Below, piece after piece: positions 9,691 through 32,229 of a stretch of 33,397 bases of DNA (positions are counted from its first letter, which is position 1; each line of letters opens with the position of its first letter). The stretch is from Thermodesulfobacteriota bacterium (lineage in GTDB: Bacteria; Desulfobacterota; UBA8473). The stretch lies in contig JAXHSZ010000068.1 in the NCBI GenBank assembly GCA_034190725.1, positions 1 to 33,397 on the forward strand. The letters run 5' to 3'. A program made the position numbers and the translations under genes. The notes under the pieces were generated by a model. It did no database searches. It saw only the letters and a list, made by a program, of their open reading frames with translations, and had not been told where the DNA came from.

Positions 9691-9771
9691 TGGATAAGGC
9701 TGAGGGTGAGAAAACCCCTCTGTTTTTGGAGGAAACTCAAAATTGAATTGTTAAAGGAGGAAAAGGTTCGA

Positions 9772-11511
9772 ATGGGAAAAGGTGAAGATCTTACTGCAAA
9801 AGGACAATACCGGTTGGTAAAGACGGAGACTCAATCCGGGATCAAGGTAAAACCATCATACGGCCCTGATGACATAGAAGGGCTTGATTATGAAAAAGAC
9901 CTGGGCGATCCGGGTCAGTGGCCGTTTACCAGGGCCACCCATGATGGACTCTATCGAAACATGCTGTGGTTGCATGAGAACCTATACATGACAGGCAGTG
10001 AGCGGTTTAAGGAAACTTGGATCCATCGAGTGGGGCTGTCAAATCCCAATCCTCCGGGATACGATGGAAACTTTTTTTATAATCCATGCGATGCGGCCCG
10101 GGAAGCAGGAGTGGACCCGGATCATCCCATGGCCCGATTGGAAATCGGTTGCGCCGGTAATGTTCACTATTGCCTCCGTAATTTGGAAGACGACCTTGAA
10201 ACGGTCCCGAACGAAAAATTGAAAACACTTTATCTCTGTTCTTTGGATGCTCCCTCACATGGAGACACACCGAGATATGCGCAGCATATTGCCCTGTTTG
10301 AAAAACGAGGTATACCCCTGGAGGAGATGAGGGGTTTTCAGGTAAATGACGGTATACACATCCATATCATCAGGTGGTGCGACAGTAACCCCCTTGATCT
10401 CAGTTTCAGGTTGAGTGTTGATTCCATGGAATTCAGCGCCAGGAACACGCCCCGATATTATCCCATCTGTCCGAACATGTATGATATGAGAGAGACAGGC
10501 ATAGATGTGATCCAGGAAGTGGCTTTCAATCTGAGCGAGCGAATTGCCTTCATCGATGAAGCCATGAAACGGGGGATCAAATTTGAACAACTCACCCATA
10601 GGATTGACATATCCTTTACAGGAGAGATCGATTTCTTCGAGACAATTTGTAAAATCAGAGCGGCCCGGAGGATGTGGGCCAGAATAGCCAAGGAAAGATA
10701 TGGATGTACCGATCCTAAATATATGAGACCGCCCACCGGGATAAACATGGCAGGCAGCGCCATGACCGCACAGCAGCCCGTAAACAATATCTCCAGAATA
10801 GCAATTATCAGCCTTGCGTGTGCCTTAGCAGGGGTTCGTTCCATACAGCCCAAAAATTTCCTGGAGCCTCTGCCCGTACCGTGGTTGCCCGGGACCATGT
10901 ATCCAAGCATTGCCACCCAGTATATTATCGCTCATGAGACAGGAGTTCCCCTGGTTGCAGATCCATTGGGTGGTTCCTATTATGTTGAGTGGCTGACCAA
11001 TAAGATCGAAGAGGAAGCGAGCAAATTGATGAAGGAGATAGAAGACAGGGGTGGAATACTGGAATGTATCAGGAGCGGTTGGATACAGGGGGAAGCCGAG
11101 AAAAAGGCCCTTGATCTCCAAAGAGAATTGGAGGAGGGGCGAAGGATTCAGGTGGGGGTGAATGCGTTTCAAATACCCAAGGATATAGAAGTACCCATAC
11201 CTGAGATTGAGCTTGAGGATCTGGAAAAGTGTCCCGGTGGTGAAAAGTTTGAAAGCCTGGAGGAGTATCAGTTGAAGATCCTGAAGGAGATAAAGGAGTT
11301 CAAGGAGGGGAGAGATTCAGCCAGGACAAGAGAAGGTATGTTACGACTCCGTGAAGCCTCGGGAAATGGAGAGAACTTGATTCGTCCCATGATAGAGGCA
11401 TATAAAGCCGATGCTACTACCGGGGAGGTAATGGGTATGATCAGAGAAGGCATGGGATACAGTTACGATCCATTCAATGCCATAGAAAGACCGGAATTCT
11501 TAAACCAGTGA
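9772..11511 (+). CDS. divergent methylmalonyl-CoA-mutase-family large (substrate-binding TIM-barrel) subunit
   Basis: Family landmarks are TQSGIKVKPSYGPDD, PGQWPFTRA, FFETICKIRAARRMWARI, MTAQQPVNNI and DPLGGSYYVEWLT. Several canonical blocks (RQYAGF, GLSVAFDL, SGYH) are replaced. There is no fused B12 domain. I prefer ATG 9772, which is preceded by AAAGGAGGAAAAGG. Confidence 0.8.
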   Translation: MGKGEDLTAKGQYRLVKTETQSGIKVKPSYGPDDIEGLDYEKDLGDPGQWPFTRATHDGLYRNMLWLHENLYMTGSERFKETWIHRVGLSNPNPPGYDGNFFYNPCDAAREAGVDPDHPMARLEIGCAGNVHYCLRNLEDDLETVPNEKLKTLYLCSLDAPSHGDTPRYAQHIALFEKRGIPLEEMRGFQVNDGIHIHIIRWCDSNPLDLSFRLSVDSMEFSARNTPRYYPICPNMYDMRETGIDVIQEVAFNLSERIAFIDEAMKRGIKFEQLTHRIDISFTGEIDFFETICKIRAARRMWARIAKERYGCTDPKYMRPPTGINMAGSAMTAQQPVNNISRIAIISLACALAGVRSIQPKNFLEPLPVPWLPGTMYPSIATQYIIAHETGVPLVADPLGGSYYVEWLTNKIEEEASKLMKEIEDRGGILECIRSGWIQGEAEKKALDLQRELEEGRRIQVGVNAFQIPKDIEVPIPEIELEDLEKCPGGEKFESLEEYQLKILKEIKEFKEGRDSARTREGMLRLREASGNGENLIRPMIEAYKADATTGEVMGMIREGMGYSYDPFNAIERPEFLNQ

Positions 11512-11557
11512 TAATAAGAAATCGCAAGGTCTCATTCCATGGAGGTGAAGGTTGAAA

Positions 11558-12115
11558 ATGGAATACAAAACGTCAGACGAAAAGAGAAAGATGAGGGTAT
11601 TAATGGCAAAACCCGGAATCGACACCCATTGGAGGGGTGCTTTTGTTATTGCTCAGGCGCTCAGGGATGCCGGGATGGAGGTGATTTACACAGGAACGTA
11701 TAAAAGTCCTGAGATGGTATTGAATATGGCCATAGAAGAAGATGTGGATGTCATTGCCATGAGTTTTATGGGCGGGTCCCACGTACCTTTGTCCAGAGAG
11801 ATCGTGAAATTGGTCAAAGAAAAGGAGGCTGAGGATATCTGTCTTATTGCCGGTGGGATCATCAGGGATTCCGATAAAGAGGTATTACAGGAAATGGGGA
11901 TTTCCGGGCTGTATGGGCCCGGCACTCCCTTGGACCTCATAGTCGGCCATATTGCCCAGAGGATCAGGAGGGAGAGATGGAATCAACCCGTCTGTTGTAA
12001 AGAGTGTGCCATGTTTTCCCCAACGCAAGAGAATGAGAGAGAAGTTGAGTGTAACGGTACGGTTGTGTCACATGATACAGAGGTCACGGACTGCCTTGAT
12101 TTTCGGTTTTCATGA
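11558..12115 (+). CDS. cobalamin-binding small subunit (B12-binding Rossmann domain) with an atypical Cys-rich tail of about 45 aa
   Basis: The DxHxxG motif is present as GIDTHWRG in RVLMAKPGIDTHWRGAFVIAQAL, with downstream SF..GG and GGII blocks. GGAGGTGAAGG lies upstream of ATG 11558. The tail is NQPVCCKECAMF...ECNG...DCLDFRFS. Confidence 0.85.
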   Translation: MEYKTSDEKRKMRVLMAKPGIDTHWRGAFVIAQALRDAGMEVIYTGTYKSPEMVLNMAIEEDVDVIAMSFMGGSHVPLSREIVKLVKEKEAEDICLIAGGIIRDSDKEVLQEMGISGLYGPGTPLDLIVGHIAQRIRRERWNQPVCCKECAMFSPTQENEREVECNGTVVSHDTEVTDCLDFRFS

Positions 12116-15654: not shown

Positions 15655-16965
15655 ATGAAGGGTGACCATATGTATTACGAGTATTGGGATCTCAAAAAAC
15701 CGCCTTTTGACAATGTTCCGGACCCATCCATGTATGTGGAGTCTCATGGATCAGTAGAGACAGCCATATCAGAGACCCTATTCGCCATAGAGGCAGGAAA
15801 CGAATGCATCTCAGTAATTGTTGGCGATGCAGGCACGGGTAAGACCATGACATTGAGAATGATCATGGATAGTCTCGAGCAAGAAAAATATAAAATCGCC
15901 TTCATAACCAATCCCGACATGTCATTTGTCCAGCTTTTACGAGAAATAATTGGCCAGTTAACAGAGGAAGAATGCGAGGCAAAGAGAAAGATCGAGCTTC
16001 TGGATCATTTCAAAAAACTTTTATTTGAGACGATCGATGAAGGCAAGAAGGTTCTTATCTTCATCGATGAGGCAAATGCTATTTCTCCGGCGAACCTGGA
16101 AAGTCTCAGGTTACTTACCAATATGCAGGATGAAAGCAGAAATCTTTTTAGCATAGTTCTCTCCGGGCAGATGGAATTGGCTGAACGATTAGAACATCCA
16201 AAGCGAGTGAACCTTCTTCAGAGGATTGGTAGCTACAACAGGATCGATAAAATACAGTCGGAAGATCTCATAAAGGAGTATGTGGGAACTCGGCTCAAAC
16301 TGGCTGGTGGAACAAAGAAAGTCTTTTCAGATGATGTCTACACATATCTATGGGAATATTCGGATCATGGAATTCCCTGTCTTGTCAATAAAATCTGCAA
16401 ATTAAGTTTAAAGGCTGGAGAGACAAAAGGCCTTCATGAGATAACAGGAGACGTTGTAAAACAGGTTGGTGAACGGTTTGAGAGGTTGGTCGGCCCGGCA
16501 ATTCAAAAGAGGAGACCTCGAAAAAGAACAATTGAGAATGTTGTTTCTGAACAAACCGGAATACAAGAAGATAAGCAAAAACCAATTCTAGCAGAACTCA
16601 GAGAGAAAAGAGAGGTTGCATCCCGCATCCAAAGAAAGAGACTGAGAAAAAGGCCAGCTGATGAAGAGGGACAGAAGTCTGTTCCAGAAAAAAGTGATGA
16701 GGAACAATCAAGGATTGGGAGATTTAAGATAGGCAAGATAGGGATACCTTCCTATATTATCCATGAGGCAAAATCCACCACAAAGGAACACCGTCTGAAG
16801 CTTGCAGGAGTTTTAGCTGCTCAGACACTCAAGAAATATCCTCAGTTATTAGAATCCTCACCTTCGGCTGATCCGATTACCGTATGGAATGAAGCGAGAA
16901 ATCTCATCTACAGTAGGATTGAAGAGGAAATCGCTACAATAGAAGCTTCAAGTTCGTCTTCTTAA
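15655..16965 (+). CDS. ExeA/GspA/MshM-like AAA+ ATPase (AAA_22) with a charged K/R/E-rich C-terminal half
   Basis: The N-terminal signature is YWDLKKPPFDNVPDPSMYVESHGSVETAISETLFAI. Walker A is GDAGTGKT and Walker B is VLIFIDEA. The start could instead be ATG 15670, which has AAGGGTG upstream. Confidence 0.8.
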   Translation: MKGDHMYYEYWDLKKPPFDNVPDPSMYVESHGSVETAISETLFAIEAGNECISVIVGDAGTGKTMTLRMIMDSLEQEKYKIAFITNPDMSFVQLLREIIGQLTEEECEAKRKIELLDHFKKLLFETIDEGKKVLIFIDEANAISPANLESLRLLTNMQDESRNLFSIVLSGQMELAERLEHPKRVNLLQRIGSYNRIDKIQSEDLIKEYVGTRLKLAGGTKKVFSDDVYTYLWEYSDHGIPCLVNKICKLSLKAGETKGLHEITGDVVKQVGERFERLVGPAIQKRRPRKRTIENVVSEQTGIQEDKQKPILAELREKREVASRIQRKRLRKRPADEEGQKSVPEKSDEEQSRIGRFKIGKIGIPSYIIHEAKSTTKEHRLKLAGVLAAQTLKKYPQLLESSPSADPITVWNEARNLIYSRIEEEIATIEASSSSS

Positions 16966-16990: not shown

Positions 16991-17887
16991 TCAGTTGCTC
17001 AACTTTTTCAAAAGCTGATTTGCACGAGTATGTCCAGGGTTGACAGACAAGACAAAGTGGAGTCTCCGAGTTATCTCCTTCTTTTTTGACTGATTCAGGT
17101 CTGACTTGTTACGGAGATAGTCGAGCCGTGCAACATTGAAATGGGCTTCTTCCTGATAGGAATCGAGTGAAAGTGACTTTTCATAAGCAGAAGAAGCTTC
17201 TTGATACTTTCCCATCTCTTCATATACTGCACCCAGGTTATTCCACACCTCAGCATTGTATGGGTCCAACCCCAGTACTCTCACAAAGGATTCCTTTGCA
17301 TTTTTATAATCCCCCTGTTGGATGTAGAGATTTCCAATATTAAAACGTGCTTTTATGTGATTGGGATTTATCTCCAGTACCATCTGATAGTATTTCATTG
17401 CCTCATCAAACATGTCATATCTATCATATAAGACGGCCAGACAAAAATGAGCGGGTATTGATTCGGGGTCTATATCAATTGCTTTCATGTATTGTTTTTC
17501 AGCACCTTTATAGTCGGCCTGTAAATCTGCGATGTGACCAAGATCAATAATGGCTTCAACGTCTTGAGGATTCAATTCCAAGGCTTGTTCATACATCTGC
17601 TTGGCACTGCTAAAACGTTCCAGTTTTTCATAAACATAGCCCAGGTTATTGTATGCTTCGGGATTGTCAGGCTCAATCTCTGTCACTTTTTTGAAGAACT
17701 CTAAAGCCTGATCATAATCCTCTTTCTCAAGATATATAAAGCCCAGATTCACATAGGCATCCACAAAGGTGTCATCGAGTTCTATACTCCTTTTGTAAGC
17801 GATTATGGCCTTATCATAATCAGCCTCAATGGTGTCATATCTATATCCTTCATTAAACCATTCTTTGGCAGTTCTTTTATTCGTCAT
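16991..17887 (-). CDS. tetratricopeptide-repeat protein (about 8 TPRs)
   Basis: It shows regular 34-aa repeats with the A..Y...L...P....A..NLG.Y pattern throughout, for example AYNNLGYVYEKLERFSSAKQMYEQALELNP. Confidence 0.85.
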   Translation of the reverse strand: MTNKRTAKEWFNEGYRYDTIEADYDKAIIAYKRSIELDDTFVDAYVNLGFIYLEKEDYDQALEFFKKVTEIEPDNPEAYNNLGYVYEKLERFSSAKQMYEQALELNPQDVEAIIDLGHIADLQADYKGAEKQYMKAIDIDPESIPAHFCLAVLYDRYDMFDEAMKYYQMVLEINPNHIKARFNIGNLYIQQGDYKNAKESFVRVLGLDPYNAEVWNNLGAVYEEMGKYQEASSAYEKSLSLDSYQEEAHFNVARLDYLRNKSDLNQSKKKEITRRLHFVLSVNPGHTRANQLLKKLSN

Positions 17888-18509: not shown

Positions 18510-19556
18510 TTGGCTAAGATTGATGTGTTGCTTAACATGATGATAGAGTATGGGGCTTCTGATTTGCATGTTTCCGCAGGAAATCCTCCTATGCTCAGAA
18601 TCAACGGTGAATTACAGAGAACAAAATATCATGATCTTTCTCCCAAAGAAGCTGAAGTCCTTCTTCTTGAGATGTTGGATGAAGAGACGCTGGAACTTCT
18701 GAAGAAGAAGAGGGATATTGATTTTGCATATGAACTTGAAAATAAAGGTCGTTTTCGTGCCAATGTTTTCATGGAAAAAAACGGATATGGAGGAGCATTC
18801 CGTCTAATTCCTACACAGATAAAGACTCTCAGGGAACTTATGCTCCCTGAGTCCATCTATTCCCTTGCGCGTATGAAGAGCGGTCTTGTATTGGTAACAG
18901 GACCAACGGGATCAGGCAAATCCACGACTCTCGCTTCTATGATAGATTTAATGAATAAGGAGAATAATTATCACATCATCACTCTAGAAGATCCAATAGA
19001 ATTTATATATCCCAAAGGGAAATGCCTTATACACCAAAGGCAAATGGGTTTTCATGTAGATAGCTTTTCTTCAGGTCTGAGGGCCGGCTTGAGAGAGGAC
19101 CCTGATGTTATTCTTGTCGGGGAGATGAGAGATCTGGAGACAATCCATCTGGCACTGACAGCATCAGAGACAGGACTTTTGGTCCTCGCCACTCTCCATA
19201 CTTCCAGTGCTGCCCAGACAATTGATCGTATCATAGATGTATTTCCCACATCACAGCAACCTCAGGTCAGAACCATGCTGAGTGAATCCTTACGTGGAGT
19301 GATTGCACAACAATTATTAATACGATCTGATAAGAAGGGCAGAGTTGCAGCCGTGGAAGTAATGATATGCAATCAGGCCATCCGGAATCTGATTAGAGAG
19401 GGGAAAACGTATCAAATATCTTCCGTGCTTCAGACAGCTCGATCTAAGGGGATGCAGACCTTAGAAAGCCACATCACGGAACTGGTGGGACAGGATTTGA
19501 TAAGTGAGGAGGAAGCAAATTTATACAGAAAGGACAATGAAGCAGTCTCCCAATGA
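18510..19556 (+). CDS. pilT: PilT-type type IV pilus retraction ATPase
   Basis: It carries GASDLHVSAGNPPMLRINGEL, Walker A GPTGSGKST, Asp box LEDPIEF, Walker B VILVGEMRD and an intact His box ATLHTSSA. The size of about 348 aa fits. The start is TTG at 18510; ATG 18537 is an alternative. Confidence 0.9.
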   Translation: MAKIDVLLNMMIEYGASDLHVSAGNPPMLRINGELQRTKYHDLSPKEAEVLLLEMLDEETLELLKKKRDIDFAYELENKGRFRANVFMEKNGYGGAFRLIPTQIKTLRELMLPESIYSLARMKSGLVLVTGPTGSGKSTTLASMIDLMNKENNYHIITLEDPIEFIYPKGKCLIHQRQMGFHVDSFSSGLRAGLREDPDVILVGEMRDLETIHLALTASETGLLVLATLHTSSAAQTIDRIIDVFPTSQQPQVRTMLSESLRGVIAQQLLIRSDKKGRVAAVEVMICNQAIRNLIREGKTYQISSVLQTARSKGMQTLESHITELVGQDLISEEEANLYRKDNEAVSQ

Positions 19557-21582
19557 GATGATGGATGACATCATAAGACTGAGAACATATCTCATACAAA
19601 AGGGTCGATTAACAGAGGACCAGTTTCTTCAAGCGGAAGACTATGCCCTTACACGGAAGATGTCCATTGATGAAGCCATTCTCTTTCTCAACCTTATGGA
19701 TTATACGGAATTTGGAGAGAGTCTGGCTGAGATTTATGGAAAATCTTATCATCCTTTATTAGAAGAGCCTCCTCAAGGGACTGCCAGAGAATTTGTTCCA
19801 TTGAAGCTGGCTGAGAAATGGAATATTTTTCCCGTAAACTACGATCCAAAAAAAAAGATCCTCACACTTGCAATTGATAACCCGGAAGATCATTTGATAA
19901 TCGGTCAAATCCAAACGATCTTCCCCGCAGGTGTAAAACTGGTATTTTTTGTGGCATCGAAGGCAGAGATTGCAAAGGCCATAGACGTCCACTATAGGGG
20001 TAGGACATACACACCCGAACGGGATCTGGAGGTCCCCCATGATTTCGCCATATTAGGTTCTGAGAAAGAAACTGAAGAAGAAATAGAAATAGATTGTGAA
20101 GAGGAGATCAGAACAAAAAAGAAAATACTTGTTCTTGAACCTGATTTCACTCGCGCCGGCGCCCTGAAAACCATCCTTCGCTGTGAGGGGTATCGGGACG
20201 TGAGTTGGATTTTATCACTGCAGGATATGATAGATACACTCAGAAAAAATTCACCGGACTTTTTATTGGTGAACAACCGCACCTTCCAGCGTCAGGGATC
20301 CTGGCTCAAGGATATTCCAAAAGATATTGATCTTCCACATATATCATACTATGATCTTTCCCCTTTACTATTTGGACAAGAATATCCCTACCATCAGATG
20401 AGTGAAGCCTTAATTGATCTCACGGCATTTCTTGTGAGAAAAAGTCTGGAGAATGATGCAGACAAACTCCAAGAGACACTCACCAGAGTGCGGCTTTGCA
20501 AGCTTTTAGCATTGAGGTTGCATCTCTTCCCTGCTCAAGTAGATGCTACAGTTCTGGCTGCATGGTTTTCAACACGGGGAGTAGGGAAAGATCTGTTAGG
20601 CAGTATAACTACTCCTTACCATCTGGAAGAAATTCTTAATTTCAAGTTGAGTACGGAGAATGGACGAAGGATAGAATCGACCATTCTGGAGATGGTCATT
20701 GTATATCAGAGCTTGAGAAGAAGTGAATCTGAAATGTCTCAGGACATCAATCGACTCAGGAGTATACTGAGCAGACAATTTCCTTCTGGAGAGTATGAAA
20801 GAATCTTGGAAACCTTTCTGCATCTCATCAAGGATGAGGAATTTTTAAAAAGAGTTGATCATCATGGAGGAATTATCCTTATTGTTGATTCCAAAGAGTC
20901 CAAAGAATCGAGTATGTCTCTCCGACTGAGTAATGATGGGTACCAGATAGAGGTTGTTTCGGATGTTCGTGAGGCGATAAAAACTCTATCCCAATTCAGA
21001 GTTGACTTGATCATTTCCGAGGTCAATCTACCAGAGACCGATGGCCTGAGCTTCTGCCGGACTATCAGAGAAAACTCTCTTGGGGGAGACGTTTCTTTTT
21101 TCTTTCTCACAGAAGAAGAAGGGGAGAGACTCCCGGCGAAATGCCTGGAAGCCGGCGCCGATGACTTCCTAAAAAAACCAGTGGATATGGAAATCCTCTC
21201 CTTAAAGATTGCGCGTGTGCTGGCTTTAAAAGGTTCCCAAAAATCAAAGAGAGGTGTCAATGGATCTCTTAAAGAGATGAACTCCACGGATTTTATTCAA
21301 AGCCTTTCCGAAGGGCATAAGGATGTTGAGATAACCCTTAAAAGTATGGGTGAAAAAGGCATTATCTATATGCAGTCAGGAGAAATTATTCATGCTTCCC
21401 TGGGTGACCTTTACGGAGAAAATGCATTTTACCGGCTCATGACATGGCAAGATGGGGAATTTCAGATCGTCCCCTATTCCACCTTCCCACCTCGAACTAT
21501 TCATCACAGCACCATGTCCCTTTTGATGGAAGCGGCCCGTATCGCTGATGAAGCCAACGCAGCAGAAGATGAAGAATGTTGA
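19537..21582 (+). CDS. multidomain signalling protein: T2SSE_N (GspE/PilB N-terminal) domain, pseudo-receiver, HD-like degenerate region, receiver with Asp->Glu acceptor, DUF4388
   Basis: The T2SSE_N pattern is FVPLKLAEKWNIFPVNYDPKKKILTLAIDNPED. REC-like 1 has FLLVNN in place of the acceptor Asp. REC 2 reads DLIISEVNLPETDG (GAG codon 21019-21021) and keeps LT and KKP. The C-terminal DUF4388 pattern is GSLKEMNSTDFIQSL...GIIYMQSGEIIHA...GENAFYRLMTWQDGEF. The gene overlaps or abuts the pilT stop at 19556, so the start (19537 or 19558) is uncertain. Confidence 0.8.
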   Translation: MKQSPNEMMDDIIRLRTYLIQKGRLTEDQFLQAEDYALTRKMSIDEAILFLNLMDYTEFGESLAEIYGKSYHPLLEEPPQGTAREFVPLKLAEKWNIFPVNYDPKKKILTLAIDNPEDHLIIGQIQTIFPAGVKLVFFVASKAEIAKAIDVHYRGRTYTPERDLEVPHDFAILGSEKETEEEIEIDCEEEIRTKKKILVLEPDFTRAGALKTILRCEGYRDVSWILSLQDMIDTLRKNSPDFLLVNNRTFQRQGSWLKDIPKDIDLPHISYYDLSPLLFGQEYPYHQMSEALIDLTAFLVRKSLENDADKLQETLTRVRLCKLLALRLHLFPAQVDATVLAAWFSTRGVGKDLLGSITTPYHLEEILNFKLSTENGRRIESTILEMVIVYQSLRRSESEMSQDINRLRSILSRQFPSGEYERILETFLHLIKDEEFLKRVDHHGGIILIVDSKESKESSMSLRLSNDGYQIEVVSDVREAIKTLSQFRVDLIISEVNLPETDGLSFCRTIRENSLGGDVSFFFLTEEEGERLPAKCLEAGADDFLKKPVDMEILSLKIARVLALKGSQKSKRGVNGSLKEMNSTDFIQSLSEGHKDVEITLKSMGEKGIIYMQSGEIIHASLGDLYGENAFYRLMTWQDGEFQIVPYSTFPPRTIHHSTMSLLMEAARIADEANAAEDEEC

Positions 21583-21653
21583 GTCATATCTGTTTTCATA
21601 CTTCATGATGTCCACCTATCATGAAATACCCGAAGAGATTAAAGGAGGAGTTG

Positions 21654-22109
21654 ATGTACAAGATTGATATGGTAAAGAGGGAAGCTGAGGTCTTTTTCGC
21701 TGATGGAAGCAGTCTTGCGGGAAGCTTTTTCGTCTCACCCCAATCATCAAGTCATTCAGGGAGCCAGTTGGTATCTGAATTGCTCATTGACAAAAATTCA
21801 TATTTGCCCTTCGAGTTAGATGGAGAGGAGACAATTATCCTATGGAGGGGATCTATTGTAATGGTTATTTTAGAGAAAAATGAGCTGAACTTGCAGACTC
21901 CTTGCTTAAAACAGATTATCGTTCGGGTCTGTCTCATTTCTGGTGGAAATCTGAATGGCAAGGTATTCACAGATCTTCCGGAAAGTTACACACGCCTTTC
22001 TGATTTCTTGAATCATAATGATCAATTCTTTCATTTAGAGGTGGATAACAAGGATCATCTGATTAATTCCAGATTCGTTAAGATGGTAGAACCCGGGCTG
22101 TCAGCTTAA
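21654..22109 (+). CDS. hypothetical protein, about 151 aa, with two similar beta-rich halves
   Basis: AAAGGAGGAG lies directly upstream of ATG 21654. There is internal similarity between AEVFFADGSSLAGSFFV and VRVCLISGGNLNGKVFT. I recognise no family. Confidence 0.6.
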   Translation: MYKIDMVKREAEVFFADGSSLAGSFFVSPQSSSHSGSQLVSELLIDKNSYLPFELDGEETIILWRGSIVMVILEKNELNLQTPCLKQIIVRVCLISGGNLNGKVFTDLPESYTRLSDFLNHNDQFFHLEVDNKDHLINSRFVKMVEPGLSA

Positions 22110-22122
22110 CAGAAATTTTGTG

Positions 22123-24441
22123 TCATGCAACACAGACTCTTCTCACTTCATCAATATCAGTCAATCCCATAAAAACCTTATTGATTCCATCTTGTTTCAT
22201 AGTAGTCATTCCATCTCTTATTGCTTGTTCAAAAAGGTCCCCTTCGGTTGCCCGTTCTTTGATCAGACCTTTTATTTGAGGCGTCCCTTCCATCAATTCA
22301 TGTATGCCTATACGTCCTTTGTAACCGGAATGAGTGCATAGGTCGCAGCCCACAGGACGATAGAGTTTAAGATCAGGACTAAAATCCCCTTTAAAGGCCT
22401 TAAATTGTCCATTACCATAATCGGAAACAATATCCTCAAACTCCTCTTTTGAGGGGTGATATTCCTCACGGCAGTTTGTGCATAGTCTTCTGACAAGCCT
22501 TTGAGCAAGCACACCCAGGAGAGCATGAGAGAGATTGAGTTGATTCAAGCCGGTGCTCAGGAGTGTGGTCACTGTTTCACAAGCACCTTCCGTATTGAGG
22601 GATGAAAAGACGAGATGTCCGGTCAGCGAGGCTTGTATTGCCATTGAGGCTGTTCTATCCTCCTGCATCTCACCGATCATGATAACATCCCCATCGGCTA
22701 ATAAAAGAAAGCGCATAATCCTTGTAAAATCTAATCCTATTCCAGGTTGTACCTCAATCTGTCTCATATCGGTCTGAACAATCTCCACAGGATCTTCTGC
22801 AGTCCAGATTTTGAGGTCTGACCTTTTGATATGAGCAAGGACACTGTGAAGGGTTGTGGTTTTTCCTGAACTGGTTGGGCCTGATACCAGCATAAGACCA
22901 TAAGGCTTTGTAAGGATGTTTTTGATTTTATCTAGATTTTTTTCACTCAATCCTATTTCATCCAGTGCCATTACATCGGTCTTCACCAATATTTTGACAA
23001 CAATATCCTCGACCTCTCCTATAGTTGGGATGGTGGTTACTCGAAGATCAAGAGGTGGTGTATCTTTTCCCTTGAATTTAATCTTCCCATCTTGAGGTAT
23101 GAATGTTTCTTCCTCATCGAGGTTGGCCATTGCTTTCAGTCTTGAAAGTAATTCCTGGGCCATGGACTGGGGTATGTGAAGATACTCCTGACAAACACCA
23201 TCCATTCTGAAGCGTATACCAGCTGACTTTGAATCGAATGACGGCTCGATGTGTATGTGTGATACTTTTTTTCGATACGCATCAACTAGAATCTGCTCCA
23301 ATAGCCCTATCACTTTATCAGATACTTCATCATCCCTCACACTGTACCCCTCTGTCTCAGTCATCACATCTGATTCAGACTTTACTTCTTTTCTCTCACC
23401 TTCACCCTCCTCTTGTCCATCATCCACTTGCTCCTTATCCTTCTCTGTTTCTCTCCCCATATCATATTTTTTTTCTTCCTCCAAATTCATGTCCGCATCT
23501 ACTTGGACCTTTTGACTTGTCTCCGGTTCTACTTCCGTTTCAGCATCCAAACTTTTTTCCAAGTTCAGAGCGATGTCATCGTCTGTGTCTATTCCTGCCT
23601 CAATCTTCCCATCTTCTTCATCAAGGGGGAAGTCAGAAATAAGATCAAAGTCCATTTCTATCTCATCAATGGTCATATCATTCTTTATAAAACTGTCCGG
23701 CGATCTCATTTCAGAGTCATGATGCTCATCTTCAGCATCTGCTTTCTGCAATTTTTCATTATCTACAATATATCCATCCGTTTCTGATCCTAAAGAAAAG
23801 TCAGTGGTAAGAGAATCTACTTTCTTTTTGATTTCAATATTGTCTGGGTCCTTTTCCACTGCTGACTTGTACAGATCAAAGGCCAGATCATTATGTTGCC
23901 TCTTTTCCATCTCCAGCCCAAGCAAAAACTGAATCCGCCCGGCCTCATCTTCATCGATGCCGTGTCTGTTGAAAAGGCTTTCTATCTGCTCTTTAACTGC
24001 TGTGGCAGGATAAATACTGAAGAGACATTCTGAAAGATTGGGGACTATTTTTCCAGGGGGATAATTATGTTCAAATAGCATTTCATATTTAGCGATTGCT
24101 TCTTTGAAAAGGCCAAGTTTCTTGAATGCTGATGCACTGTCCAGGATTTCCTCAACGCTTTCAATATCTGTTTTGTTCGCCATATTGATGGGAGGCTCTT
24201 GTGCTGAGAGTTCAGATGCTTCTGTAACTTCATCGTTTTGTTGTTCCCTGATTTCCTTTTTCAATGACGCAATCTTTTCTCTGATTTTTATTTGTTTATA
24301 TGCATCCAGTTCCGGGACATCTTGAAGAATTTGTTCATAGGACTGTAGGGAGTCTCCCAACAATCCCATTGAATAATAGACCTCTGATGCCCGTAATTTT
24401 GCTTCTACGTCGATTTTTTTTCCGGTTACATTCTCATTCAT
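22123..24441 (-). CDS. GspE/PilB-family secretion ATPase with a non-canonical N-terminus (TPR-like helices plus a polyacidic linker of about 160 aa) and a degenerate His box
   Basis: The core motifs are VSHIHIEP, Walker A GPTSSGKTT, Asp box AEDPVE, Walker B DVIMIGEMQE and the tetracysteine CTNC...CDLC. The His box reads SSLNTEG (AAT codon 22594-22596) instead of S/TLHTN. The SD GGTGGAG lies upstream. Confidence 0.85.
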   Translation of the reverse strand: MNENVTGKKIDVEAKLRASEVYYSMGLLGDSLQSYEQILQDVPELDAYKQIKIREKIASLKKEIREQQNDEVTEASELSAQEPPINMANKTDIESVEEILDSASAFKKLGLFKEAIAKYEMLFEHNYPPGKIVPNLSECLFSIYPATAVKEQIESLFNRHGIDEDEAGRIQFLLGLEMEKRQHNDLAFDLYKSAVEKDPDNIEIKKKVDSLTTDFSLGSETDGYIVDNEKLQKADAEDEHHDSEMRSPDSFIKNDMTIDEIEMDFDLISDFPLDEEDGKIEAGIDTDDDIALNLEKSLDAETEVEPETSQKVQVDADMNLEEEKKYDMGRETEKDKEQVDDGQEEGEGERKEVKSESDVMTETEGYSVRDDEVSDKVIGLLEQILVDAYRKKVSHIHIEPSFDSKSAGIRFRMDGVCQEYLHIPQSMAQELLSRLKAMANLDEEETFIPQDGKIKFKGKDTPPLDLRVTTIPTIGEVEDIVVKILVKTDVMALDEIGLSEKNLDKIKNILTKPYGLMLVSGPTSSGKTTTLHSVLAHIKRSDLKIWTAEDPVEIVQTDMRQIEVQPGIGLDFTRIMRFLLLADGDVIMIGEMQEDRTASMAIQASLTGHLVFSSLNTEGACETVTTLLSTGLNQLNLSHALLGVLAQRLVRRLCTNCREEYHPSKEEFEDIVSDYGNGQFKAFKGDFSPDLKLYRPVGCDLCTHSGYKGRIGIHELMEGTPQIKGLIKERATEGDLFEQAIRDGMTTMKQDGINKVFMGLTDIDEVRRVCVA

Positions 24442-24719: not shown

Positions 24720-25100
24720 CTATCTTGCAAAAAGATGCGTGAATCTTTTAATTTTTCCCATCTGCTTCAAATTGGGCAACAGAGTGTCGCAATTGAGTCG
24801 TAACATGGCAATTGGAGCGAAAACTCCCATAAGCACAAAGAGATATCCATGCTCTATTCTCCTGATATAAAGTCTGCTCTTTTCAAATAGTAAATCCGCT
24901 TCTCTGATTCCTTTCAATGAGTCAATAAAAAAGCCCCACCAGTCTTTTGTATGAGGATCTACTGGAGGTGGAGATAAAAACTCTTCAAATATGATCTCTC
25001 CCTGAAAAGAGACTAATATAACCCCTTTCACATCTTCAGTTGTCAAAATACAGTGCAATAGTTTCTTGATTTCTTTCTTGGATGGCAATTTCGTTTGCAT
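24720..25100 (-). CDS. Roadblock/LC7-like small protein (second MglB-type paralogue), tentative
   Basis: The 126-aa protein shows the pattern LLHCILTTEDVKGVILVSFQGEII...ADLLFEKSRLYIRRIEHGYLFVLM, typical of Robl_LC7 (alpha-beta-beta ... beta-beta). Confidence 0.5.
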   Translation of the reverse strand: MQTKLPSKKEIKKLLHCILTTEDVKGVILVSFQGEIIFEEFLSPPPVDPHTKDWWGFFIDSLKGIREADLLFEKSRLYIRRIEHGYLFVLMGVFAPIAMLRLNCDTLLPNLKQMGKIKRFTHLFAR

Positions 25101-25333
25101 TCTTTGTTATCACCAGTTCACAAATCTTGAGATCCTGTTCTCAACGAAACAGGCTGAAGTTCCTTGAAAAAAGTAATAATCCGTGAGGGTGAATAGGACT
25201 TTGGTACGCACCGGCTGCTTGCTTCGTTTCTCATTAGATGCAGAGTCTGACACGTATCCTCATATACATAAAAACCTGCAATCCTAGTATTAATTTCAAT
25301 CTGAAGGTGAACATTCCCTTGATTTATAACAAT

Positions 25334-26407
25334 TTATGCGAATGTATCATTTATAATTTGAATTATTTTTTCCTTAGGACACTTTGGACTGATTGAAATG
25401 ACTGTTGTCTCTTGACCAGGTAAAAGTATGAAATCATTTGATTCACCCCTGTCTATATAGGCAAGATTCAGTCTTCCTGCATCAAAGATTGCCCCCATTT
25501 TTCGTATCTGCGCCATGAAGCTGTTCCATGAATTGTCCTGATATATGTTCTCTAGCTCCCACTTTTTATCCATCTTTGCATCCAACTTACACTTAATATA
25601 ATCCGTGGGGTTCGTATCTTCTGTACCCCCATTTTTCACCAATTCATCTGGGTTTTCATCCTCATTAGAGGGAGCGCCTGGTTCTTCTCTCTGCTCACGC
25701 TCATCTTTAAGCCGCATTGCTTCAAGGAGGACTGCCTGAAGGTCGTTCTCGATCCTCTTTTTCTTATTAAAACATGCATTTTGGATTGAAAGGTTCGCTT
25801 CATCCCAAGAGAGAATTTCATATGCAGCGACTGTTCCTTGGATACTCCCAACTCTTGCATCAATCAGCGCACCTTCCTTGACAAAGAGTACTCCATGTTT
25901 CCCCGACTGCTTATCATTTAACCTAATGGTACATGTCTTCCTTTCCATATCCATCAACTGTAAAAACATCCCAGAAGAGATATCATGTAATATTCCACCC
26001 TCTGACTCCCTCTGTAAGATCATCTTAATTTTCCGAGTAAGATCACTGATCACAATGGGTTTTTCAATGTATTCCAAGGCATCTTCCATTTGGATCTGCC
26101 TCTTGAGGCTTTCTTTCCCATAACCGGTCATTATGAATACCGGAATATCCGGAAAGTGTTCAACGATATAAGCCCGGAGTGTAGCTCCATTCATTTGTGG
26201 CATTTTGAGGTCAGTAACCACCAGAGAGATGGGGTTTTCCTTCAGCATTTTTATGGCTTGAAAACCGTCTCTGGCGGTTATTACAGAAAAATGCTCATCG
26301 TGGTCTTCAAGGCTTTCTTTGAGAGAGCGCAACACCTCTAGATTATCGTCGACAATGAGTATCTTTTTCTTCATAATTTTAGTCAATGAATTTTCAGTTT
26401 CATCCAT
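25334..26407 (-). CDS. response regulator: canonical receiver, DUF4388, and an unknown C-terminal domain
   Basis: The receiver residues are KKILIVDD, VVTDLKMP, IMTGYG and EKP. The DUF4388 pattern is GILHDISSGMFLQLM...GVLFVKEGALIDA...GTVAAYEILSW. The start is either ATG 26407 (inside a 34-bp palindrome) or ATG 26371 (MKKKILIVDD). Confidence 0.85.
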   Translation of the reverse strand: MDETENSLTKIMKKKILIVDDNLEVLRSLKESLEDHDEHFSVITARDGFQAIKMLKENPISLVVTDLKMPQMNGATLRAYIVEHFPDIPVFIMTGYGKESLKRQIQMEDALEYIEKPIVISDLTRKIKMILQRESEGGILHDISSGMFLQLMDMERKTCTIRLNDKQSGKHGVLFVKEGALIDARVGSIQGTVAAYEILSWDEANLSIQNACFNKKKRIENDLQAVLLEAMRLKDEREQREEPGAPSNEDENPDELVKNGGTEDTNPTDYIKCKLDAKMDKKWELENIYQDNSWNSFMAQIRKMGAIFDAGRLNLAYIDRGESNDFILLPGQETTVISISPKCPKEKIIQIINDTFA

Positions 26408-26425
26408 GCATGGATGAAACTGAAA
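26392..26425. repeat. 34-bp perfect palindrome spanning the annotated start codon of the REC-DUF4388 gene
   Basis: TTTCAGTTTCATCCATG|CATGGATGAAACTGAAA matches at 17/17. It lies between the stop of the 242-aa gene (26436) and the REC gene. Confidence 0.85.
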
Positions 26426-26435
26426 GTGAATTGAA

Positions 26436-27164
26436 TTACGGGAAACTGATCCTGTATCTTTTTAGCATATCGCAATGTCTCTTGAACCATGGATCTAAAT
26501 TCTTTTCAAGCTGATGCAGGATTCCAAGTTCATTGGCCGATTCCTTTACGGATTCTACTACCCCATATATGAGGTCTTGAGTGCTTGCATCCCCTTTAAA
26601 TGAAATCTTTTGATCAGAGTATTCGAATTCACCTGCAAACGGATCAAGAAAATCATACTTGCCAGCCAGTTCCACAAATTTCTTTTTGAGCAGAATACTG
26701 GACCCTGTCTTTATCTTCTTGTTTGAACCGACTGTTTGCTCGAATGCAATCAATAGTTCTTCGAGCATATTGAGCGCATTCGAAAATAATCTCCGACTCG
26801 TCTGTATCTTTCTCTTTTCTTTGTTTTCCATTGTAGGGGGAATCTTGCCGACGTTAAAAGTCCCCCCCCCTTCTTTTGTTTTTTGAATAAGGAGTTTTTG
26901 GTCTTCTTGGAAATTTCTGATCTTTCCGTTGTTCCACGAATACGACCCGACAACCATGTCTCCATTCTGGAAAAAGATGAGGCCCCTTTCCTCCCCTTTG
27001 CCTATTAATACATCCACATAACCGGTGAGCTTCTGAAAACTCATCTTTGTTAACAAACCTTCAAGATCAATGATGTCGACACTGAGGCCTTCATACATCA
27101 TCTTTGCGTTATATGCATTTGCCCAATAGTAGACTTTCTCATGATCTATATCATAGATGTTCAC
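26436..27164 (-). CDS. hypothetical protein with a DUF4388-like N-terminal module
   Basis: The GTG start overlaps the upstream stop (GTGA). The pattern LTGYVDVLIGKGEERGLIFFQNGDMVVGS resembles the DUF4388 core. The C-terminal half is unknown. Confidence 0.6.
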   Translation of the reverse strand: MNIYDIDHEKVYYWANAYNAKMMYEGLSVDIIDLEGLLTKMSFQKLTGYVDVLIGKGEERGLIFFQNGDMVVGSYSWNNGKIRNFQEDQKLLIQKTKEGGGTFNVGKIPPTMENKEKRKIQTSRRLFSNALNMLEELLIAFEQTVGSNKKIKTGSSILLKKKFVELAGKYDFLDPFAGEFEYSDQKISFKGDASTQDLIYGVVESVKESANELGILHQLEKNLDPWFKRHCDMLKRYRISFP

Positions 27165-27421
27165 TGTAAAATTATGGCTGCCTTTTTTTGCATGAGCAGA
27201 CCCACTGCTTTCTCGCCTTCGATCTCCCCGTATTTATTCTGAAAAACAGCTGTCAAAAGTTCGTCTTTGTCAAAGAAAATCATGCCTTCTGCGGAAACAG
27301 ACTTAAAATGGATCCCTCCTGCATCGAACTCCCCTTGATAGTGTTCCACAAGTCGCTCCATGTCGAGGTAATAGCTGTTCAGATTCTGAATAGAAGGCTT
27401 CTCTCTCGGAACAATAACCAT
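27161..27421 (-). CDS. small DUF4388-like protein (86 aa)
   Basis: The pattern FDAGGIHFKSVSAEGMIFFDKDELLTAVF...GEKAVGLLM resembles the DUF4388 core. It is translationally coupled to the next gene through a 4-nt overlap. Confidence 0.55.
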   Translation of the reverse strand: MVIVPREKPSIQNLNSYYLDMERLVEHYQGEFDAGGIHFKSVSAEGMIFFDKDELLTAVFQNKYGEIEGEKAVGLLMQKKAAIILQ

Positions 27422-27474
27422 TCGTCTCTCAAATTACACTTTTCAGGGTCTGTCATAAAAAAAGCATCACATCT

Positions 27475-28620
27475 TCAGGCTGCGTTCTTTGCTTTACGTC
27501 CTCGCAATCTCTCAATTGAAAGACGGATACTGTCCTGCATGCGTGAGACTGCTTCTGCCAGATCTTCTATTTCATCATTGGATTTTATTTCTATTTCTGC
27601 ATCCAACTCACCTATACTGATACGGTCCGCGGTTTCGGAGAGATGTCGGATTTTACCTGTAAGGCTACGTCCGTAGAGAAATATAATACATGCAATGGCG
27701 ACAAGCCCTGTCCCCATTGTTATCATATTGGCTCTTCTTATTTTTTCAGCAATCTGCGCTCCCTCTTTTTCCAGTATGTTAACGGGTGCATAGAGTTCAT
27801 CAAGGTAGAGAGTAGAACCAACAACATAGGATGTCCCTTCAACAGGAATACAAGCCATGTATTTCTCCCTTGTTCGCCCGTCCTTTTCATGCCATGTGTA
27901 GTAACCTGTTGAGCCCTTTCTGCCTTCCACTCCTGTAAGGGTTTTCCAAAATCCTTTAAAATTCTTCCCGAGAGTCTTTTTTAACTGGCTTAAATCAATG
28001 CCTACCAGGTGAGGGTTGGGATGGACCCATGCTCTCCAGATCCCATTTTCATCAGGCATCTCATAGAGAACAGTGTAACCGGTACGTCCTATCCTGTGGA
28101 GGACTACTTTCTTGAATTCTGGATCGCTATTGAAGTCCTCTTTTTTCAAGTCCGGGTGTTTCATGAGGTAGTTTTTAATCTGCATTGCTAAAAACTTGGA
28201 ATGACTATTTGTCTTCTCCTCTGTCATTCGTGTTATTATATTGACACTTTTATTTATTGTAAGCTCTTGCATGGATGACATGTTTCGTATTGAAAGAAAA
28301 ATACTGACGCTATAAATGATGATCAACGGCACAAGGATAAAAAACATAAATTTCGTTGTCAGACCAATTCTCCATGAACGCTTCCCGAAGATCTTCGCTA
28401 CACGATTTCCTGCATGCTTTTTTTGAATTGTAGGTTTGAAATGCGGCGTTGCCTTTTTTATGGCATGATAACCGTGTTGTGATTCCGAAGATCTGACATC
28501 AGGTTTCATTATGGTAATAACATGCCCACAAAACTGGCATTTCCCTTGGGCCGCATCTCCTTTAATTTTTGAAGGATCTACTCGATATTTTCCTCCGCAT
28601 TCCTCACAAAAAACAATCAT
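27475..28620 (-). CDS. membrane sensor: N-terminal MJ0042-type zinc ribbon, TM, Cache-like extracytoplasmic domain, TM, HAMP; no output domain
   Basis: The zinc ribbon is MIVFCEECGGKYRV...GKCQFCGHVI (CxxC...CxxC). The two hydrophobic segments are FMFFILVPLIIIYSVSIFL and MITMGTGLVAIACIIFLY. The HAMP region is LTGKIRHLSETADRISIGELDAEIEIKSNDEIEDLAEAVSRM, and the protein ends about 20 aa later. I prefer ATG 28620, with GAGGAG 7 nt upstream. Confidence 0.8.
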   Translation of the reverse strand: MIVFCEECGGKYRVDPSKIKGDAAQGKCQFCGHVITIMKPDVRSSESQHGYHAIKKATPHFKPTIQKKHAGNRVAKIFGKRSWRIGLTTKFMFFILVPLIIIYSVSIFLSIRNMSSMQELTINKSVNIITRMTEEKTNSHSKFLAMQIKNYLMKHPDLKKEDFNSDPEFKKVVLHRIGRTGYTVLYEMPDENGIWRAWVHPNPHLVGIDLSQLKKTLGKNFKGFWKTLTGVEGRKGSTGYYTWHEKDGRTREKYMACIPVEGTSYVVGSTLYLDELYAPVNILEKEGAQIAEKIRRANMITMGTGLVAIACIIFLYGRSLTGKIRHLSETADRISIGELDAEIEIKSNDEIEDLAEAVSRMQDSIRLSIERLRGRKAKNAA

Positions 28621-28631
28621 AGCTGAGCTCC

Positions 28632-29126
28632 TCAAGAAAGTTTCTTAGTATTATTGGAAATATCCGTTTCCTTAATTTTCTTGATCATATTCTGTTTAAA
28701 CCGTGTCATCTTCTCCTCTCGTTGTATCTGTCTGGCAAGCAAGTCAACCAACTCAGCTGCTCGACAACTCGGAAAATGTGATAGAGTATGATCCAGGTCA
28801 CTGACTGCATCATCGATCAATATCTCGGCTATTGGACCCACGGCCAAGGACAATTGAGCATTGAGATAATCAAAGAAGTCATCTTGCAGAATGGGAACAG
28901 CGCCCTCAACAGGTTCAACAAGCTCTAGTTTTAGAAGCTTGGAAATGATCTCCTTGATGATACCTATCTTTATACCCGTCTTCTGGGCTATTGTCCCAAG
29001 ATTTTTTTTGCCATCTAATTCCATAATGACTTTTAACATCTGGCTGGTCAGGGAAAACTCTCCAAGGTTGTCCCTCATTACGCGCTTGAAAACCATAACA
29101 TACGCTTCATTCAACGAAATATTCAT
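28632..29126 (-). CDS. hypothetical protein with a possible winged-helix (MarR-like) segment
   Basis: It contains the wHTH-like stretch NLGTIAQKTGIKIGIIKEIISKLLKLELVEPV. GGAG lies 9 nt upstream of the ATG. Its stop is followed at once by the SD of the next gene. Confidence 0.6.
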   Translation of the reverse strand: MNISLNEAYVMVFKRVMRDNLGEFSLTSQMLKVIMELDGKKNLGTIAQKTGIKIGIIKEIISKLLKLELVEPVEGAVPILQDDFFDYLNAQLSLAVGPIAEILIDDAVSDLDHTLSHFPSCRAAELVDLLARQIQREEKMTRFKQNMIKKIKETDISNNTKKLS

Positions 29127-29247
29127 TTCAAAGTCTCCAATAAACTCACTTCTCAGCCATTTGTTCTCATTATGAATGGAGTATGTAATTGATCAAGAAC
29201 TATCAAGAATTTTGTTTCTCCTTTCTGGAAGACTATCAGGTTCCCTT

Positions 29248-31611: not shown

Positions 31612-31623
31612 TTGTCTGCCCTC

Positions 31624-32229
31624 CTATTTCAGTTCCTCTTGCAAGGATGATATAGTTGTGGATATTATCCTTTTCAGTGTGGGAAGCACATTTTCTCCTG
31701 TTACAGCACTGGCCTCAAAAGAAGGTACCTTCAAACGCCCGTTAAGGTCTTTTTCCAGTGTTTCTAAAGATAAGAGAGGAATACCATCTTCTTTGAGGTC
31801 CCTTTTGTTATATTGCAATACAAGGGGAACCCTGAAGATGTTCTTATTATGAGCCGTCAAGTTTTCTTGAAGACTCTTGAGAGATAAAAGATTCTTTTCT
31901 CTTCTCACTGCCATGGAGTCAGCAACAAAAACAACACCATCCACCCCTTTCAAAACCAAGCGTCTGGTTGCATTATACTTCACCTGTCCCGGCACTGTGT
32001 AGAGTTGTATTCGAACAGCATATCCCTTTATCTTCCCCACATCAAAAGGAAGAAAATCAAAGAAGAGGGTTCGGTCTCCATAAGTCTTTATACTGACCAT
32101 ATCCGATTTGACCCTCTCTTTAAATCGTGTATTTATATATTCGAGATTCGTGGTCTTCCCACCCCTACCAGGGCCATAGTAGACTATTTTTACCTGTACC
32201 TCTTTGTTTTTGAGATTGATGAATGCCAA
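31624..32229 (-). CDS. mglA: MglA-family Ras-like small GTPase
   Basis: It matches MglA landmarks closely: FINLKNKEVQVKIVYYGPGRGGKTTNLEYI, GDRTLFFDFLP, LYTVPGQV, LKGVDGVVFVADS and LQYNKRDL. I place the start at TTG 32229, 5 nt after GGAGGGA, which gives (M)AFIN... as in MglA. The ORF-track start at 32244 would include the SD. Confidence 0.92.
   Translation of the reverse strand: MAFINLKNKEVQVKIVYYGPGRGGKTTNLEYINTRFKERVKSDMVSIKTYGDRTLFFDFLPFDVGKIKGYAVRIQLYTVPGQVKYNATRRLVLKGVDGVVFVADSMAVRREKNLLSLKSLQENLTAHNKNIFRVPLVLQYNKRDLKEDGIPLLSLETLEKDLNGRLKVPSFEASAVTGENVLPTLKRIISTTISSLQEELK

Follow-up and report, generated by a model that had tools for sequence, protein, structure and literature searches.

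A 33,397-nucleotide stretch of DNA from a Thermodesulfobacteriota bacterium (contig JAXHSZ010000068.1 of assembly GCA_034190725.1, positions 1 to 33,397; the whole stretch is called the window here) carries, directly behind the gene pilT, a gene for a multidomain protein of 681 amino acids (aa). We found that this protein, referred to as the target protein, is a nonenzymatic scaffold from a family of pilus-associated cyclic diguanylate (c-di-GMP) signaling proteins with the domain order MshEN, pseudo-receiver, HD-GYP, receiver, and PATAN. The clade to which it belongs has lost the c-di-GMP contacts of the MshEN domain, the catalytic and metal-binding motifs of the HD-GYP domain, and both acceptor aspartates, with Asn and Glu in their place. 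The same clade has gained a tight operon link of pilT, the target gene, and an open reading frame (ORF) of ~150 aa. The features of this cassette are as follows.

18510 to 19556, + strand: pilT, bona fide retraction ATPase and conserved upstream partner (TIGR01420, 458.6 bits; cut-off, 319.1)
19537 to 21582, + strand: target gene, 681 aa, MshEN, pseudo-receiver, HD-GYP remnant, receiver with Glu, and PATAN
19570 to 20007, + strand: MshEN (GspE/PilB N-terminal) domain, aa 12 to 157, with a hairpin part (aa 12 to 68) and an alpha/beta part (aa 69 to 157)
20107 to 20382, + strand: pseudo-receiver, aa 191 to 282, four beta-alpha units, N246 (codon 20272 to 20274) at the acceptor position
20383 to 20856, + strand: HD-GYP remnant, aa 283 to 440, all helical, S345-T346 at 20569 to 20574
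20866 to 21234, + strand: REC2, aa 444 to 566, aspartate-less receiver, E495 (GAG, 21019 to 21021) at the acceptor position
21253 to 21555, + strand: PATAN (DUF4388) domain, aa 573 to 673, the most conserved domain of the protein
21621 to 22109, + strand: small partner ORF, ~150 aa (the start may be 21654, as in the protein-collection gene call)

Domain architecture and conservation of the target protein

Domain calls were made with a Pfam scan against gathering scores, an NCBIfam scan, AlphaFold2 models, Foldseek, profiles run against Protein Data Bank (PDB) sequences, and hhalign. Pfam recognized three domains in the target protein: MshEN (PF05157, aa 77 to 156) at 30.2 bits against a cut-off of 23.1, Response_reg (PF00072, aa 447 to 556) with an expectation value (E) of 1e-23, and DUF4388/PATAN (PF14332, aa 576 to 673) with an E of 2e-19 and 70.1 bits against a cut-off of 25. 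No Pfam match was obtained for aa 160 to 445, and NCBIfam had no model for the protein apart from receiver matches. The full-length AlphaFold2 model, made with 31 orthologues (mean predicted local distance difference test score, 79.5), consists of five folded units with disordered linkers between them. These are helical hairpins followed by an alpha/beta part (aa 5 to 153), four beta-alpha units (aa 193 to 278), an all-helical unit (aa 285 to 439), a receiver (aa 444 to 566), and PATAN (aa 574 to 680). Foldseek with the full-length model returned receiver matches only.

A large protein collection contained 68 further full-length proteins (~660 to 700 aa) with the same three Pfam domains and 41 to 64% identity. 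Residue counts per position were taken over 67 full-length orthologues, a number that is a lower bound on the size of the family. The orthologues named from the collection come from Desulfobacteraceae or Desulfobacterales metagenome-assembled genomes (MAGs), and a scan of species-representative genomes adds MAGs of Smithellaceae/Syntrophaceae, Desulfovibrionales, and Desulfohalobiaceae. Mean pairwise identity was 0.46 for the pseudo-receiver, 0.49 for the helical domain, 0.51 to 0.53 for MshEN, 0.56 for the receiver, and 0.59 for PATAN. Since these values are similar in all domains, the “dead” domains are maintained by selection. That the gene is an artifactual fusion of two genes was ruled out by at least 67 full-length orthologues (41 to 65% identity) across Desulfobacterota.

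A preliminary description of the window, made from its letters alone, had proposed much of this layout. It described an MshEN (T2SSE_N) domain that is detached from its ATPase and has only a partial c-di-GMP motif, a first receiver-like fold without the acceptor Asp, a degenerate HD domain at AAWFSTRGVGK, a second receiver with Glu in place of Asp and a reduced acidic pair, and a C-terminal DUF4388. All of these assignments were borne out by the profiles, alignments, and models reported here, the first receiver-like fold with weak matches. It had also raised three possible objections, namely, a normal acceptor Asp, a lack of T2SSE_N homology, and a fusion artifact; none of them held once the alignments and orthologues were at hand.

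The MshEN domain keeps its register and loses the c-di-GMP motif

The N-terminal part of the target protein (aa 14 to 157) aligns over its whole length with the N-domains of Geobacter PilB (5zfr and 5tsg) and Thermus PilF (6f8l), with an E of 0.003. The c-di-GMP site of MshEN domains is built from two 24-residue motifs with a five-residue joint, in which RLGxx(L/V/I)(L/V/I)xxG(L/V/I)(L/V/I)xxxxLxxxLxxQ occurs in tandem, and a relaxed form of this motif has been given as well (PMC5013675). In the target protein the 24+5+24 register is kept (R14 to A37, L38 to M42, and S43 to I66) and the hydrophobic positions are retained. The RLG positions are taken by R14-L15-R16 in motif 1 and by S43-I44-D45 in motif 2.

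Across the 67 orthologues, position 1 of motif 1 is mostly Lys, position 3 (Gly in the motif) is Lys or Arg in 57 and Gly in none, and position 24 (Gln) is Ala. Motif 2 starts with S-[LI]-[ED] instead of R-L-G, with Gly at position 3 in just 2/67; Asn, Glu, or Lys stands in place of the Gly at its position 10, and Ile or Leu in place of the Gln at its position 24. The relaxed motif was matched by 0/67 orthologues. Judging from these replacements, canonical c-di-GMP binding by the target MshEN domain is unlikely. The end of motif 1 carries an invariant QAEDYALT signature.

REC2 and the first receiver-like unit are without an acceptor aspartate

By its fold and its sequence, REC2 is a receiver, but one that cannot be phosphorylated on the canonical residue. 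Its model matches PhoB, ArcA, and CheY in Foldseek with template modeling (TM) scores of ~0.9. When aligned with receiver 1 of PleD, E495 corresponds to the acceptor D53, D451 and S452 correspond to D9 and D10, T525 corresponds to T83, and K547 corresponds to K105. The acceptor Glu, for which the preliminary description had suggested a check in orthologues, was present in 67/67, as were D451 and the Lys, and the Thr was present in 66/67. The second acidic position, which is Ser here, is Pro in 53/67 orthologues, and F544, at the aromatic switch position, is near-invariant. This pattern is familiar from other aspartate-less receivers, where the acceptor is most often replaced by Glu (26%) and, of the two acidic residues, the first is usually kept and the second usually lost (PMC4395418). 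A Glu at the acceptor position is often phosphomimetic, yet it is not always decisive for activity (PMC12632262).

The first receiver-like unit is more divergent. Its acceptor position is Asn in 67/67 orthologues, which leaves the unit nonphosphorylatable there. Pfam Response_reg scored 12.4 bits against a cut-off of 30.2, with 7/19 members matching weakly (best E, 0.003). The PDB profile gave weak matches to PmrA and others (E of 0.005 to 0.03), and Foldseek gave weak matches with an E of 0.013 or worse, the CikA pseudo-receiver being among them. A dedicated AlphaFold2 model of aa 188 to 442 has only four strands in this unit.

The helical domain derives from an HD-GYP domain

An HD domain in aa 283 to 440 was not found by Pfam (19 members), by the PDB-sequence profile, or by Foldseek with the dedicated model of aa 188 to 442. 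When hhalign was run with the helical part alone against P0070, the sole HD-GYP-containing match of the first search, the two aligned with a P of only 0.04, although in the register proposed in the preliminary description. A profile of aa 188 to 442 gave 149 matches in 1.84 billion representative proteins. In the protein P0196 (787 aa) the five domains come in the identical order and the HD_5 domain is bona fide (E of 1.6e-23), and P0184 (824 aa) resembles it with a weaker HD_5 match (E of 6.7e-12). P0180, P0187, and P0207 lack MshEN but are otherwise ordered alike, and their HD_5 domains overlap the stretch that aligned to the target protein.

In joint colinear alignments, the first metal-binding His (in “RGHSH”) falls on E313, and the HD dyad (in “YVHDLGK”) falls on S345-T346 of “AAWFSTRG,” which lies against “..HDLGK” of the relatives with an intact HD-GYP domain, in line with the earlier reading of AAWFSTRGVGK. 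The His-rich loop and the GYP loop (“DGxGYP”) appear as two deletions in the target clade, of ~28 and 11 residues. We accept the homology because intermediates of the same architecture with an intact HD-GYP domain align colinearly, and we read aa 283 to 440 as a decayed HD-GYP domain. With the metal ligands, the HD dyad, and the GYP motif gone, the protein cannot act as an HD-GYP phosphodiesterase.

The relatives with an intact HD-GYP domain also help to order the changes. P0184, P0200, P0212, and P0214 each have at least one copy of the relaxed MshEN motif, and P0200, read by eye, is canonical in both motif halves. In most of these intact relatives the acceptor is Glu as well, and where the first receiver would be they too have a pseudo-receiver. 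Both features are therefore old in the superfamily and did not arise as adaptations at this locus. The change that sets the target clade apart is the loss of both c-di-GMP-related motif sets, that of MshEN and that of HD-GYP.

The wider superfamily has a core made of the helical (HD-GYP-derived) domain, a receiver, and PATAN, and it falls into four size classes (P0075 to P0218; loci L085 to L092). Proteins of ~750 to 840 aa have MshEN and an intact HD-GYP domain, those of ~560 to 590 aa are without MshEN, those of ~600 aa are without the pseudo-receiver, and those of ~400 aa consist of the helical domain, receiver, and PATAN only. The acceptor residue varies in the shorter classes (D, E, A, S, or V). 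Superfamily members at L086 and L089 adjoin a HEAT-repeat protein and a separate HD-GYP protein.

pilT is the invariant neighbor of the target gene

The target ORF ends at 21582 and has three possible in-frame starts, GTG 19504, ATG 19537, and ATG 19558. The pilT stop codon (TGA) occupies 19554 to 19556, so that ATG 19537 overlaps pilT by 20 nucleotides (nt) and ATG 19558 lies 1 nt past the stop; with either ATG the gene overlaps or abuts the end of pilT, as had been noted earlier. An N-terminal extension conserved in close orthologues (KKSPND in P0002 versus KQSPNE here) backs ATG 19537, and a pilT overlap of 20 to 23 nt is repeated in loci L003 and L093. For these two reasons, the extension shared with the closest orthologues and the like overlap, we kept the start at 19537. 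The position of the second Met is the start site in more distant orthologues. In a consensus scan of the stretch separating pilT from the target gene, terminator and promoter matches were not clearly above shuffled expectation, and none was convincing.

Among solved structures, the best match of the window PilT was Pseudomonas aeruginosa PilT (3jvu; E of 3.5e-100), and the Walker A, Walker B, and AIRNLIRE motifs are all present. The window PilT is a normal, bona fide retraction ATPase by its TIGR01420 score, this match, and these motifs.

We compared the window proteins with 35 related loci by tblastn; 33 of these loci had upstream DNA, and the gene tables of four long contigs were also consulted. 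In 33/33 loci pilT was directly upstream on the same strand, with 72 to 78% identity between the PilT proteins, and a homologue of the small ORF was directly downstream in ~29 loci. The target gene started at most 45 nt after the pilT stop in ~24 of 31 distinct loci, including overlap or abutment in ~8, and 110 to 220 nt after it in a few. By tblastn, none of the window genes for the PilB-like protein, MglA, MglB, REC-PATAN, AAA_22, and TPR proteins had a counterpart nearby in the related loci. PilB-like, MglA, and MglB genes were not found within 10 kb there, with one exception: L093, the closest relative (60% identity), is the sole other locus where a PilB-like gene lies convergently downstream. 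The four long-contig gene tables agree with this synteny. Thus, the conserved unit, seen in ~30 genomes of sulfate-reducer-type bacteria, is pilT, the target gene, and the ~150-aa ORF. Five more distant superfamily members were looked up, and because none of them lies next to pilT, the pilT link is specific to the target clade. At L001, L002, and L003/L004, genes for PAS-rich histidine kinases follow the small ORF downstream in convergent orientation, where the window has its PilB-like gene.

The small partner ORF shows weak DUF6812 similarity and an internal repeat that looks like an internal duplication. Its second half contains a near-invariant “LP.sh.RLSDFLN..FF.le...yLvN” motif (RLSDFLN). 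Its relatives are “hypothetical protein” entries only, from the same lineages as the cassette. We found no relative among solved structures, and the literature search returned nothing on DUF6812.

A possible PilT-coupled adaptor and its alternatives

The choice between PilB (extension) and PilT (retraction) at one pilus base is an open question. The N-domain of GspE/PilB-type ATPases docks them to the GspL/PilM-PilC platform, and PilT is without such a domain. To our knowledge, the known regulators (PilZ/FimX, c-di-GMP via MshEN, PATAN regulators, and MglA/SgmX) all act on PilB. Given pilT as the neighbor in 33/33 loci, we take PilT, and not the PilB-like ATPase of the window, to be the conserved partner. 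The comparable purifying selection on all five domains suggests that each acts as a binding module. Our leading account of the mechanism, which we hold tentatively and would place somewhat below an even chance, is that the target protein is a PilT-coupled adaptor at the base of the motor of type IV pili, unresponsive to c-di-GMP and phosphorylation.

According to this account, the target protein would be made together with PilT and would be positioned by its PATAN and MshEN modules at the base of the type IV pilus machine, on the cytoplasmic side. PATAN would bind the N-terminal domain of PilC and/or the N-domain of the extension ATPase, as in cyanobacteria, and MshEN would serve as a copy of the docking domain that is present in PilB/GspE and absent from PilT. 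By occupying or mimicking the PilB docking site, the protein could hand the platform to PilT, either by recruiting PilT or by excluding PilB, with a bias toward retraction as the outcome. The Glu receiver may be fixed in a phosphorylation-independent state, as part of a fixed core that would also comprise the pseudo-receiver and the HD-GYP remnant. For the small third protein, the role of an additional subunit or of a regulator is probable. There is precedent for parts of this scheme, as Synechocystis PATAN regulators bind the N-terminal domains of PilB1 and PilC (bioRxiv 10.1101/2021.06.11.447907), an interaction known only from proteins of that organism, and inactive HD-GYP proteins work via protein-protein contacts (bioRxiv 10.1101/2021.11.05.467447). 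A GspE_N domain in some PATAN proteins has been mentioned in passing (bioRxiv 10.1101/2021.06.11.447907).

Several points weigh against this account. The Synechocystis PATAN regulators did not bind PilT1 or PilT2 (bioRxiv 10.1101/2021.06.11.447907), and since they bound PilB1 and PilC instead, precedent gives no support for a direct contact with PilT. Operon linkage is a matter of co-expression and not of physical coupling. In ChxR, the acceptor Glu did not determine activity. Lastly, the predicted TM (pTM) score of the full-length AlphaFold2 model is 0.35, which makes the arrangement of the domains relative to each other unreliable.

A broader proposal goes further, and we regard it as unlikely: that in Desulfobacterota PilT obtains a docking N-domain in trans from an operon-encoded partner, via MshEN and PATAN on the PilC/PilM platform and in competition with PilB, and that this partner evolved from a c-di-GMP-sensing/-degrading regulator by losing its nucleotide and phosphoryl inputs. 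If true, the target protein would be the first described adaptor for a retraction ATPase.

The cyanobacterial binding data, with PATAN on the N-terminal domains of PilB1 and PilC and not on PilT1 or PilT2, would also fit a brake on PilB. Here, PATAN and the MshEN mimic would bind canonical PilB and/or the platform and block extension, and PilT would be co-expressed and not contacted. MshEN could compete for the docking partner of PilB or titrate PATAN-type regulators, and co-expression with pilT would make the brake and retraction simultaneous. However, such a brake leaves the strict (33/33 loci), tight, and overlapping linkage to pilT unexplained, as well as the inclusion of the third small gene, and we consider it unlikely.

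The preliminary description had assigned the target protein to another ATPase, proposing that it supplies MshEN in trans, as a phosphorylation-independent scaffold, to the PilB-like ATPase of the window with its TPR-like N terminus. The premise that this ATPase is itself without a T2SSE_N domain stood, as T2SSE was matched at aa 375 to 768 and MshEN was not matched in Pfam. The gene is convergent with the cassette, 13 nt downstream of it, and L093, the closest relative (60% identity), has a PilB-like gene next to its cassette too. Moreover, cyanobacterial PATAN binds the N-terminal region of the extension ATPase, and in other cassette genomes the PilB-like ATPase could be encoded elsewhere. 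Nevertheless, synteny gave this proposal no support: ~30 other cassette genomes have no PilB-like gene within 10 kb, pilT is the invariant neighbor, and the PilB-like gene of the window belongs with an MglA/MglB/REC-PATAN module of its own, encoded on the other strand. We therefore think it improbable that the protein works on behalf of the PilB-like ATPase.

The residues that replaced the c-di-GMP contacts are themselves strongly conserved at the former ligand sites (A33, E34, D35, Y36, and T39; W343; S345). This could point to a noncanonical receptor for a nucleotide second messenger, with c-di-GMP or another ligand at the altered MshEN hairpins (QAEDYALT) or at the HD-GYP remnant controlling PATAN. 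Degenerate c-di-GMP enzymes often turn into messenger receivers (PMC12448109), and relatives of the target protein retain the canonical motifs. Against such a receptor, 0/67 orthologues pass even the relaxed MshEN motif, both halves have other residues in place of Arg, Gly, and Gln, and the HD-GYP metal ligands and GYP loop are all gone; its chances strike us as poor. Conventional two-component output, in which a kinase such as the PAS-HisKA candidates encoded convergently downstream in L001 to L004 would exert control by binding without phosphotransfer or by phosphorylation at another site, would fit the conserved T/F/K switch residues but is very improbable given the acceptor Glu in 67/67, the reduced metal site (D-P), and the absence of a kinase neighbor from the window and many loci.

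Comparison with known systems

The target protein resembles several known protein types and differs from each of them. Like the PatA-type (PATAN-REC) regulators of cyanobacteria (PixG, PixE, LsiR, and PilG), which are associated with the type IV pilus motor, it combines PATAN with a receiver. In those regulators, PATAN is the output domain and orphan members act without phosphorylation (bioRxiv 10.1101/2021.06.11.447907). In contrast, the target protein has its receiver before PATAN, a Glu acceptor, and three extra domains (MshEN, pseudo-receiver, and HD-GYP remnant), and its gene lies in a pilT operon of a Desulfobacterota host and not in a chemotaxis-like operon. Based on the domain order, the acceptor, and the neighbors, we classify it as something other than a PatA-type response regulator.

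With the MshEN domains of the MshE/PilB type (Vibrio cholerae MshE, Geobacter PilB, and Thermus PilF), the target protein shares the two-part fold and the 24+5+24 hairpin register, whereas its MshEN domain is detached from an ATPase and the Arg, Gly, and Gln that contact c-di-GMP are replaced. Inactive REC-HD-GYP proteins of the RpfG family (HnoD and ECA3548) likewise have a receiver followed by an HD-GYP-derived domain without catalytic motifs, and their inactive HD-GYP domains are thought to work through protein-protein contacts. The decay in the target protein is far stronger (no recognition by Pfam or Foldseek and a deleted GYP loop), the preceding receiver is a pseudo-receiver, and the unit is flanked by MshEN and REC-PATAN. 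Aspartate-less and pseudo-receivers such as ChxR, the plant pseudo-response regulators (PRRs), and FrzS are similar in that there is a Glu acceptor, acidic residue 1, Thr, and Lys are kept, and acidic residue 2 is lost; unlike these, the target protein has a PATAN output and a pilus motor context in place of DNA binding or clock function. Closest in layout are P0196, P0192, P0212, and P0184 (750 to 840 aa), which have the same five-domain order, with a pseudo-receiver as the first receiver and mostly a Glu acceptor. These differ in keeping an intact HD-GYP domain (H..HD..GYP) and, in some, canonical MshEN motifs, and they are not beside pilT.

No domain type discussed here is new: receivers without the aspartate, HD-GYP domains that are inactive, and pilus regulators with PATAN have all been described, and the co-occurrence of MshEN and PATAN has been mentioned once. 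Our literature search did not find the five-domain family, its series from intact to doubly inactivated members, or the strict cassette of pilT, scaffold, and small ORF. A protein that is strictly co-encoded with PilT and combines a docking domain of the PilB type with a PilB/PilC-binding domain offers a concrete candidate, open to testing, for a regulator that acts on the side of PilT. In addition, the family forms a clean evolutionary series, from predicted c-di-GMP binding and hydrolysis to a form blind to c-di-GMP, which would be useful for seeing how signaling proteins become fixed scaffolds.

Other genes in the window

The remaining features of the window that were annotated are as follows.

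15655 to 16965, + strand: AAA_22 ATPase, ExeA/MshM type, upstream of pilT
16991 to 17887, - strand: six-repeat TPR protein, just upstream of pilT
22123 to 24441, - strand: PilB/GspE-like ATPase, 772 aa, T2SSE at aa 375 to 768
Within 24720 to 32720, - strand: small ORF, 126 aa, member of the polarity-type cluster
25334 to 26407, - strand: REC-PATAN protein with a normal acceptor Asp
27475 to 28635, - strand: Zn-ribbon/Cache/HAMP protein
29248 to 31611, - strand: 787-aa protein without a Pfam match
31624 to 32244, - strand: MglA-like small GTPase
32328 to 32720, - strand: MglB-like protein

In place of an MshEN N-domain, the PilB-like ATPase has a region with weak TPR matches and a long acidic low-complexity linker before T2SSE. 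A polarity-type cluster on the strand opposite to the cassette spans 24720 to 32720 (-), with MglA, MglB, and REC-PATAN among its members. On the other side, the AAA_22 ATPase and the six-repeat TPR protein are not conserved beside the cassette in other genomes. An unrelated metabolic cluster at 4773 to 12115 (+) has two tandem glycyl-radical (PFL-like) enzymes behind a TetR regulator; after the enzymes come a methylmalonyl-CoA-mutase-like protein and one that binds B12.

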